Assembly (NCBI RefSeq): GCF_003334385.1
Contig: NZ_QOWN01000013.1
Reading direction: 5' to 3' (one strand)
From: Escherichia coli
GTDB lineage: Bacteria; Pseudomonadota; Gammaproteobacteria; Enterobacterales; Enterobacteriaceae
Length of the DNA: 64,000 nt
Below the pieces are notes generated by a model that saw nothing but the letters and a program-made list of their open reading frames with translations, had not been told where the DNA came from and did not search any database. The position numbers and the translations under genes are program-made. Of the stretch, positions 28,110-28,645 are shown in pieces. Within the stretch, counting starts at the first letter, position 1. Every line of letters starts with the position of its first letter.

Positions 28110-28645
28110 TCACTTTCAAAAGTCCCTGAACTTCCCAACGAATCCGCAATTAAATATTCTGCCCATGCGGGGAAGGATGAGAAGCTTCGACCAAGGTTCG
28201 ACTCGAGCGCCAGCGAGAGAGCGTTGCCGCAGGCAACGACCCGAAGGGCGAAGCGCGCAGCGCTGAGTAATCCTTCCCCCACCACCATCACTTTCAAAAG
28301 CCCCGGAATTCTCAAACGAATCCGCAATCAAATATTCTGCCCAAGCGGGGAAGGATGAGAAGCTTCGACCAAGGTTCGACTTGAGCGCCAGCGAGAGAGC
28401 GTTGCCGCAGGCAACGACCCGAAGGGCGAAGCGCGCAGCGCTGAGTAATCCTTCCCCCACCACCATCACTTTCAAAAGCCCCGGAATTCTCAAACGAATC
28501 CGCAATCAAATATTCTGCCCAAGCGGGGAAGGATGAGAAGCTTCGACCAAGGTTCGACTTGAGCGCCAGCGAGAGAGCGTTGCCGCAGGCAACGACCCGA
28601 AGGGCGAAGCGCGCAGCGCTGAGTAATCCTTCCCCCACCACCATC
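28110..28645 (+). repeat. rttR: About three tandem ~178-bp repeats distal to the tyr tRNAs (rtT region of the tyrT operon)
   Basis: Units begin TCACTTTCAAAAG... at about 28110, 28287 and 28466, each ending ...AATCCTTCCCCCACCACCA like a tRNA 3' end. Matches the known repeated 3' region of the tyrT transcript. Confidence 0.8.
28177..28266 (+). CDS. tpr: Protamine-like arginine-rich peptide Tpr (29 aa; 33 aa from the upstream ATG at 28165)
   Basis: [29 protein letters not shown] encoded in the first 178-bp unit. The equivalent frames in units 2 and 3 carry a C-to-T change (actCgagc to actTgagc) that creates a TGA after 9 codons. Confidence 0.5.

Follow-up and report, generated by a model that had tools for sequence, protein, structure and literature searches.

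Organization of the tyrT locus

The region analyzed lies between the flanking genes purU and narI in a 64,000-nt stretch of Escherichia coli DNA (hereafter, the window), and comprises a tyrT operon with three tRNA genes and an array of trailing repeats, all on the + strand. The only promoter-like site found upstream on this strand is the tyrT operon promoter at positions 27359–27386 (TTTACA, a 16-nt spacer and TATGAT, with a TG before the −10 element; 10 of 12 matches in the promoter scan). It is followed by three identical copies of tRNA-Tyr(GTA), detected by ARAGORN at 27437–27521 (53.4 bits with the Rfam tRNA model), 27731–27815 and 28025–28109, while only two copies are present in the reference strain MG1655.

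The tRNA genes are separated by two 209-bp spacers of the same sequence (27522–27730 and 27816–28024), each of which begins with a linker of 53 nt, continues with an RtT core whose end matches the final 19 nt of the tRNA, and closes with a 34-nt tail. The cores were recognized by the Rfam model RF00391 (RtT) at 27565–27696 and 27859–27990, with 132.9 bits each. The 294-bp block formed by the first tRNA gene and its spacer (27437–27730) recurs exactly at 27731–28024, and these tRNA-plus-spacer blocks were reported by TRF as an array with a period of 294 bp.

A second type of repeat begins behind the third tRNA gene, and its unit boundaries were set directly 3′ of the CCA of that gene. Three trailing units of 178 bp were thereby defined, U1 (28110–28287), U2 (28288–28465) and U3 (28466–28643), followed by the aborted start of a fourth repeat (28644–28649; TCGCTT versus TCACTT), which accounts for the last tenth of the 3.1 copies given by TRF (178-bp period, 97% match, 28091–28649). 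In total, RF00391 matched the window five times (132.9–137.5 bits, against a gathering score of 45), in each case over model positions 1–130, and all five copies are located on the + strand, 3′ of tRNA-Tyr. In the trailing units the model covers the 3′ 132 nt of each (134–137 bits), with 137.5 bits for U1 (match at 28156–28287) and 134.2 bits for U2. The sequence-only reading, which preceded this analysis, had named an rtT array of 178-bp units and the associated tpr frame; both names are correct, in agreement with the Rfam matches and the annotations of PGAP and MG1655. It had also described the unit ends as tRNA-like over 12 nt. The identity with the 3′ end of tRNA-Tyr in fact extends over 19 nt, and the same sequence, AATCCTTCCCCCACCACCA, terminates the tRNA-Tyr genes, both spacer copies and all three trailing units.

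The first 56 nt of U1 (28110–28165) form a C-rich, G-poor linker with a C/G ratio of 3.6. By homology to rttR (b4425) of MG1655, the 171-nt rtT RNA corresponds to 28117–28287, and the tpr frame is located within it at 28165–28266 (33 codons from the ATG at 28165 or 29 from the ATG at 28177, closing with the TGA at 28264–28266). The MG1655 equivalent of U1 is annotated both as rttR (171 nt) and as tpr (b1229, 29 aa, “protamine-like protein”). In E. coli Origami2-DE3, whose sequence at the locus is identical, PGAP has five annotations of an “RtT sRNA, processed from tyrT transcript” and calls no CDS. The segment at 28110–28643 is thus an array of tRNA-linked repeats (TLR/RtT) that forms the 3′ trailer of the tyrT operon, and as such it is already known.

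Copy-number variation and constraint on the RtT core

Alignment of the trailing units, as the sequence-only reading had proposed, revealed no difference between U2 and U3 over 178 positions. U1 differs from each of them at nine positions, seven of which fall within the first 42 nt. The C-to-T change that the same reading ascribed to both U2 and U3 was found at unit position 95, where T occurs at 28382 and 28560 and C at 28204 in U1; it converts CGA to TGA at codon 10 (28382–28384 in U2 and 28560–28562 in U3) and leaves nine codons. The two units also share a second change that had escaped that reading: the upstream ATG (unit position 57; 28343–28345 in U2) has become AAG. The proposal that the stop might be a sequencing error was ruled out, given that the allele also occurs in unit 3 of MG1655 and among the trailing units of four unrelated E. 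coli strains, O157:H7, strain 350, isolate 162 and 2012C-4227.

Comparison with the K-12 tyrT locus clarified the relationship among the units. U1, unit 3, the spacer, the tRNA gene and the tpr frame are base-for-base equal in MG1655 and the window. In contrast, the third tRNA gene of the window is an exact 294-bp duplication relative to the two-gene reference, and the second trailing unit of MG1655 is a distinct sequence (eight differences from U1, nine from U3) that keeps both ATG codons and closes with TAA at codon 6, whereas U2 of the window is a copy of U3. Because U2 and U3 are identical, and unit 2 of MG1655 differs and carries a different stop, the shared C-to-T change reflects one recent copying rather than two events. 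The third tRNA gene and the replacement of unit 2 are ordinary products of unequal recombination.

Such variation is common in the species. Among E. coli loci picked to span the match ranking, and hence a non-random sample, one to three tRNA-Tyr genes, zero to five RtT copies and zero to three trailing units were observed. With T for a tRNA gene, S for the 209-bp spacer and U for a trailing unit, O157:H7 and strain 350 have the architecture T-S-T-U-U, with a five-codon frame in the first unit. Isolate 162, strains E16 and A38, and strain APEC O18 share T-34nt-T-U, in which the single unit carries the nine-codon allele, an open frame with the change F4L, and a frameshifted 22-codon frame, respectively. 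In 2012C-4227 the locus is reduced to T-U, again with the nine-codon allele only; in strain 3150 (T-34nt-T) the unit is absent; and in WP4-S17 a single tRNA gene is followed by unrelated genes. In many E. coli strains the 34-nt tail of the long spacer constitutes the entire spacer, so that the spacer RtT is polymorphic in presence and absence, with its limits set precisely by the 19-bp repeat.

The ease with which copies come and go could be taken to mean that the repeats are functionless, either as self-perpetuating by-products of recombination or as relics of insertion at tRNA 3′ ends, in which case the rtT RNA would be inert debris. Healthy natural strains of E. coli tolerate anything from no trailing unit to three, with or without the spacer copy, the boundaries of presence and absence lie exactly at the 19-bp direct repeat, and truncation is frequent in the last unit of an array. 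Moreover, the sole phenotype claimed for the repeats, a role in recovery from starvation reported in 1991, was withdrawn in 1994 (PMC8144298). We consider this explanation rather unlikely; the evidence against it comes from the comparison of RtT copies across species, as described below.

A scan of 100,044 species genomes with one exact degenerate pattern yielded 99 loci, almost all of them from Enterobacterales; since an exact match to the pattern was required, diverged RtT copies would have been missed. Including the window, 170 copies were collected (165 without it), and essentially all are located 59–68 nt behind a tRNA-Tyr(GTA) gene or in tandem behind one. Nearly every sampled species carries one copy or more immediately behind tRNA-Tyr, which counts against mere debris. 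The linkers that precede the cores also differ systematically with their position. Pooled over 75 loci, those of trailing units contain 31% C and 10% G (C/G of 3.1; 3.6 and 3.0 in the window), in contrast to a C/G ratio of 1.08 for inter-tRNA linkers, through which transcription has to continue. The difference suggests that context matters.

The cores were examined for covariation using 114 distinct sequences from the 99 loci, the helices of the Rfam consensus and one further hairpin. In total, 96.8% of the cells were paired, versus 37–49% when the 3′ partners were slid. Both-sided changes were observed in 14 pairs, compared with 5.8 ± 1.1 in shuffled data (none of 500 shuffles reached 14), and compensatory changes amounted to 119 cells. 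Column pair 36:53, for example, occurs as U-A 74 times, as C-G 21 times and as G-C 14 times. The further hairpin, of 5 bp (columns 88–92 with 97–101), lies in a stretch left unpaired by Rfam; each of its five pairs covaries, and a common alternative form has tandem G.A/A.G. Compensatory changes were thus distributed over four helices and across genera, which indicates selection on the fold, and 41 columns are invariant among the 114 copies. On this comparative evidence, the RtT core is clearly under selection at the RNA level, which argues against an inert transcript.

The energy of folding is less informative. The 171-nt rtT RNA has a predicted minimum free energy of −51.0 kcal/mol (z = −1.0 versus mononucleotide shuffles), which is ordinary for its composition, and the structural case therefore rests on covariation and not on energy. 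The inner helices P2 and P3 of the Rfam model and the local hairpin proposed by RNAalifold (columns 15–33) both make use of invariant or wobble-only columns, so that the two alternatives are indistinguishable in these data. Ancestry from the tRNA beyond the 19-mer was also considered. The best alignment, CTTCG---AAGGTTCG in the region of the T arm, attained a score that 12% of shuffles reached, and is suggestive only.

A departure from the tRNA-Tyr context occurs in a MAG with the label Cellvibrionaceae. The RtT copy there (57.4 bits) is located behind a tRNA-Gln gene and closes with the final 19 nt of that tRNA-Gln itself, and the 19-nt rule for the 3′ end therefore extends beyond tRNA-Tyr. 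A bolder proposal would be that RtT-type TLRs are functional, modular RNAs, in which a structured core, selected across Enterobacterales and present as a copy in at least one gammaproteobacterial lineage outside that order, always captures the exact 3′ end of the preceding stable-RNA gene and occurs with two forms of linker, which may serve read-through between tRNAs in one case and Rho loading at operon ends in the other. If so, the repeats would constitute a general operon-end or processing module for stable-RNA genes, or alternatively a protein-titrating RNA, and might have spread by duplications that capture 3′ ends. At present we regard this proposal as speculative and its truth as improbable.

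The tpr reading frame

The frame of U1 was described in the sequence-only reading as encoding an arginine-rich peptide of 29–33 aa, and this description was borne out: nine of the 29 residues that follow the ATG at 28177 are arginine, and the product is identical to that of tpr (b1229) of MG1655, the 29-codon frame of Altman et al. (1981; cited in PMC11623569), with no sequence difference. The richness in arginine arises because the CG-rich sequence of a stem is read in one register. In the spacer copies, the tpr-homologous frame closes with TAA after five codons. The spacers had also been said to lack an ATG, which holds for the homologous start (GTG, with CAT in place of the upstream start) but not for the spacer as a whole, in which an unrelated ATG occurs at 27537–27539.

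On an alternative view, implied by the sequence-only reading, Tpr would be a genuine small basic protein that is restricted to one lineage and translated from U1, and U2, U3 and the spacer copies would be decayed pseudogenes. Several observations favor this view. U1 offers two in-frame ATG codons and a frame of 29 or 33 codons; the exact 90-nt ORF is present in 2,029 of 5,426 complete E. coli genomes (37%; 726 have no match at all); the gene is annotated in MG1655; and U1 would be expected to be the only unit that is fully transcribed. In addition, the allele of E16 and A38 has kept its 29-codon frame open with the single substitution F4L, and a silent change of CGC to CGT in the last arginine codon moves its stop to an overlapping TGA. 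This allele could be compatible with weak constraint at the protein level.

The distribution of the frame in other species argues against such a gene. Among the 165 RtT copies from the 99 loci of other species, the homologous frame ends after five codons (GAC TAA) in 112 (68%), including copies from Salmonella, Enterobacter, Citrobacter and Klebsiella. Frames of at least 24 codons are a minority, and after about codon 12 they continue in two registers, owing to small indels. First trailing units are not favored: the frame is open in 14 of 75 loci for first units, in 7 of 43 later units and in none of 16 spacer copies. No relaxation at third positions was detected (entropies of 0.42, 0.37 and 0.375 for codon positions 1, 2 and 3), and the stretch of five codons is invariant at its third positions but variable at one second position, among codons for Ser, Thr, Asn and Ile. 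The relatives therefore exhibit neither conservation of the frame nor a coding-type pattern of substitution. Even within E. coli, O157:H7, strain 350, isolate 162, 2012C-4227, APEC O18 and 3150 lack an intact frame, which is missing, truncated or frameshifted.

The nucleotides in question are, on the other hand, accounted for by RNA pairing. The site at which TAA alternates with CAA pairs with G, as U.G in 80 sequences and as C-G in 33, and the C-to-T change of U2 and U3 likewise converts a C-G pair to U.G. Both of the stop-making changes are wobble-neutral and silent for the RNA. Variation among the copies follows RNA pairing and not codons, and the notion of one intact protein gene among decayed copies was consequently not upheld.

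Signals for initiation differ between the two starts. The Shine-Dalgarno-like sequence GGGGAAGG abuts the ATG at 28177 with zero spacing, and folding of the 171-nt RNA predicts that it pairs fully with CCUUCCCC of the tRNA-like end (unpaired probability, 0.00), so that it would be sequestered. The ATG at 28165 has no Shine-Dalgarno sequence, although the A/U-rich sequence upstream of it is predicted to be mostly unpaired (probability, 0.84), and initiation there would be possible. A protamine-like product was reportedly observed by Altman and colleagues in 1981. NCBIfam contains no model for Tpr and, as mentioned above, PGAP calls no CDS. In the main text of the E. coli small-protein and ribosome-profiling papers searched, tpr was not mentioned; a match to “TPR” in RiboReport denotes “true positive rate” and is unrelated.

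A further argument in favor of the protein derives from the Keio collection, in which tpr was listed as candidate-essential because both deletion isolates had kept a duplicate copy (PMC2824493). The repeat structure of the locus is a candidate for a trivial explanation of these duplicates, and the natural strains without tpr argue against its essentiality. Taken together, the comparative data render a genuine Tpr protein improbable. The tpr frame is most likely incidental, open in K-12-like first units by chance of lineage, with no apparent selection for a protein. Translation of the frame in K-12 may yet occur, in view of its presence in ∼37% of the genomes and of the one variant allele that is open. 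The sequence-only reading is thus supported in part, in its description of the array but not in its interpretation of the frame.

Expression of the array and related systems

No promoter-like sites were found by the promoter scan inside the repeat units, and on the + strand no intrinsic terminator (a hairpin followed by a T-run) was found after the array. The trailing linkers, C-rich, G-poor and unstructured, together with the absence of an intrinsic terminator, match the sequence features of Rho-dependent terminators, and Rho dependence at tyrT is undocumented in the literature searched. Transcription of the operon is reported to end some 225 nt beyond the final CCA (Kupper and colleagues in 1978, and Rossi and colleagues in 1981). 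In the window this distance presumably places the end of the transcript near 28334, in which case U2 and U3 would be largely untranscribed. The RtT core shares its exact 3′ end with the tRNA, as well as the A/U-rich sequence behind that end, and its release by the enzymes that process tRNA 3′ ends may therefore be inferred. The view that the rtT RNA is made as part of the tRNA precursor and then cut out of it goes back to Bosl and Kersten (1991; cited in PMC3318445 and PMC8144298) and is also expressed in the PGAP note mentioned above.

The findings can be combined into the following model. Each unit consists of an unstructured, C-rich, G-poor linker of ∼56 nt and a G+C-rich core of ∼120 nt, in which a closing stem is predicted to surround internal helices and three hairpins, and which terminates in the 19 nt of tRNA-Tyr including the CCA. 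The units would be transcribed with the tRNAs from the tyrT promoter; the tRNA 3′-end enzymes would then excise the core and give rise to a stable 171-nt rtT RNA from U1, while Rho would load onto the trailing units at their C-rich linkers. At the DNA level, the array expands, contracts and becomes homogenized through unequal recombination between repeats, events that in the window have added the third tRNA-plus-spacer block and overwritten U2 with a copy of U3. As a whole, this explanation, i.e., a TLR array in the tyrT trailer that evolves by unequal recombination and contains tpr as a by-product, is assigned a probability of roughly 0.8. It is extremely improbable that the identical U2 and U3 and the third tRNA gene are artefacts of assembly or sequencing, for although exact tandem repeats are prone to assembly error and the architecture is rare (the 1551-bp locus was matched in one piece by only the first five of 5442 ranked records, i.e., Origami2-DE3, XL1-Blue, TOP10 and two accessions of ETEC H10407), these are independent deposits (Origami2-DE3 and XL1-Blue at 100%, TOP10 at 99.9% and ETEC H10407 at 99.2% identity), the window is distinct from them (identity to Origami2 is 99.88% across 44 kb, and the window lacks one ldr/rdl unit that Origami2 has), and the component alleles are all found elsewhere.

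The locus itself is not new, having been described since 1978 and being represented in Rfam, in EcoCyc-type annotation and in PGAP. What is added here is the comparative evidence against tpr as a conserved coding sequence, together with a cleaner picture of constraint at the RNA level. On this evidence tpr (b1229), annotated as a protein in the reference genome, is better regarded as a questionable gene within a structured RNA. With clear selection on the RtT core as RNA and a systematic contrast between linkers, the function of the element is still a small but real question more than 40 years after its discovery, and one that can be tested cheaply. The finding is accurate but ordinary, and its general importance is small.

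The array conforms to the class of tRNA-linked repeats in its identity with the tRNA 3′ end, its same-strand position within a tRNA operon and its lack of a promoter of its own. The 178-bp tyrT repeats have been described since Egan and Landy (1978), and the link to the 3′ end, which the sequence-only reading had noticed and taken as a sign of origin, is the defining feature of TLRs (both as cited in PMC8144298). For this class Rudd (1999) gave 22 copies at ten K-12 loci, as summarized in PMC8144298, and it includes RrA, RrB and RrF behind rRNA operons. Like the other members, the units of the window are located directly behind a stable-RNA gene, in the same orientation, and their last 18–19 nt are those of the 3′ end of that gene. 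The only functional data for the class concern the rRNA-operon TLRs, which bind Hfq and CsrA (PMC8144298). In contrast to the tyrT units, RrA, RrB and RrF lie between two intrinsic terminators and bind both proteins in vitro; the tyrT units have no intrinsic terminator, and the motif AAGGAUGA is present in them but buried in stem P1. In its proposed processing, the RtT RNA also resembles 3′ETS-leuZ, a functional RNA that the enzymes of tRNA maturation cut out of the trailer (external transcribed spacer) of a tRNA operon transcript (PMC8144298). Unlike RtT, however, 3′ETS-leuZ is short and base-pairs with RyhB and RybB (PMC8144298), whereas RtT is distinguished by its 120-nt multi-hairpin fold, its tRNA-identical 3′ end and its occurrence in tandem repeats.

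Copy number and turnover in the tyrT operon

An exact 294-bp duplication (positions 27437-27730 repeated at 27731-28024) results in three identical tRNA-Tyr genes within 27437-28109 of the window, whereas the tyrT locus of MG1655 contains two. Three copies were also observed in one O157:H7 genome. In the ranked match list, only five records carried the whole architecture of this locus in one piece, i.e., Origami2-DE3, XL1-Blue, TOP10 and ETEC H10407 (twice).

Among the trailing 178-bp units, unit 2 (28288-28465) is an exact copy of unit 3 (28466-28643). MG1655 possesses a unit 2 of its own, with TAA at codon 6 and 8-9 differences from its neighbours, and this unit is missing from the window. 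This pattern indicates that either gene conversion or unequal crossing-over has recently taken place within the array. The final unit of an array was often shortened or devoid of the tRNA-like tail (loci L014, L037, L043, L047, L072, L077 and L083 of the species scan, among others); partial copies seem to close the arrays, and the K-12 array, with its "3.14 copies", is an example.

In many E. coli strains (loci L103, L104, L105, L106, L108 and L110), the two tRNA-Tyr genes are separated by a mere 34 nt, and comparison of the E. coli loci revealed that this short spacer equals the tail of the longer, 209-bp form. The RtT copy in the spacer is therefore either cleanly present or cleanly absent, a polymorphism whose boundaries lie at the 19-bp repeat that forms the tRNA-Tyr 3' end. 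Within loci L003-L101 of the species scan, the linkers of the trailing units were rich in C and poor in G (C/G 3.1, 75 loci), while those preceding the inter-tRNA copies lacked this bias (C/G 1.08, over 15). At the position of the ATG of the trailing copies, nearly all inter-tRNA copies (14 of 16) carried GTG.

Reading frames and neighbouring elements

The candidate-essential genes of the Keio update include tpr, the small frame inside unit 1, and a duplication was present in both tpr deletion isolates (PMC2824493, Table I). The 178-bp repeats would provide a trivial explanation for this duplication, as more than one unit is matched by the homology arms and primers. The existence of natural strains without the unit speaks against tpr being essential. 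Two stop-free antisense frames on the minus strand cross the tRNA genes and repeats, one of 299 codons (27428-28327), the other of 110 codons (28312-28644) and corresponding to the doubtful MG1655 gene ychS; both look like artefacts of G+C-rich repeated sequence.

Between the array and narI, palindromes at about 28680-28770 (within 28680-28808) resemble REP elements, as judged by eye. The narI terminator hairpin is located at 28808-28787 on the minus strand.

Two rdlD antitoxin RNAs were detected at 44895-45495 (minus strand; 84 and 91 bits), and the ldr/rdl type I toxin-antitoxin array of the window therefore comprises two units. In contrast, Origami2 (K-12) carries three Ldr genes, and its alignment with the window shows that the window has a deletion of ~535 bp relative to Origami2. 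The two are 99.88% identical over 44 kb, which identifies the window as a close relative of K-12 and not as Origami2 itself.

RtT beyond tRNA-Tyr and the Rfam consensus

An RtT copy of 57.4 bits follows tRNA-Gln(TTG) on a MAG contig labelled Cellvibrionaceae (L042, 2804-3053), and its 3' end is formed by the last 19 nt of this same tRNA-Gln (AATCCTTCCACCCCAGCCA). The RtT family therefore extends past tRNA-Tyr and, if the label is right, past Enterobacterales. Enterobacterial-type tRNA-Tyr and RtT units also occurred in L061 and L080, whose contigs bear the labels Chryseobacterium sp. 18061 and Martelella alba; contamination or mislabelling of these assemblies may be the reason.

In the alignment of 114 distinct RtT cores (A1), columns 88-101, equivalent to 28252-28264 in unit 1, form a 5-bp hairpin (AGCGC-GCA-GCGCU in K-12), which displays covariation at all five of its five pairs across genera and has a variant form with tandem G.A/A.G. 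The Rfam consensus (RF00391), in contrast, draws this stretch as unpaired.
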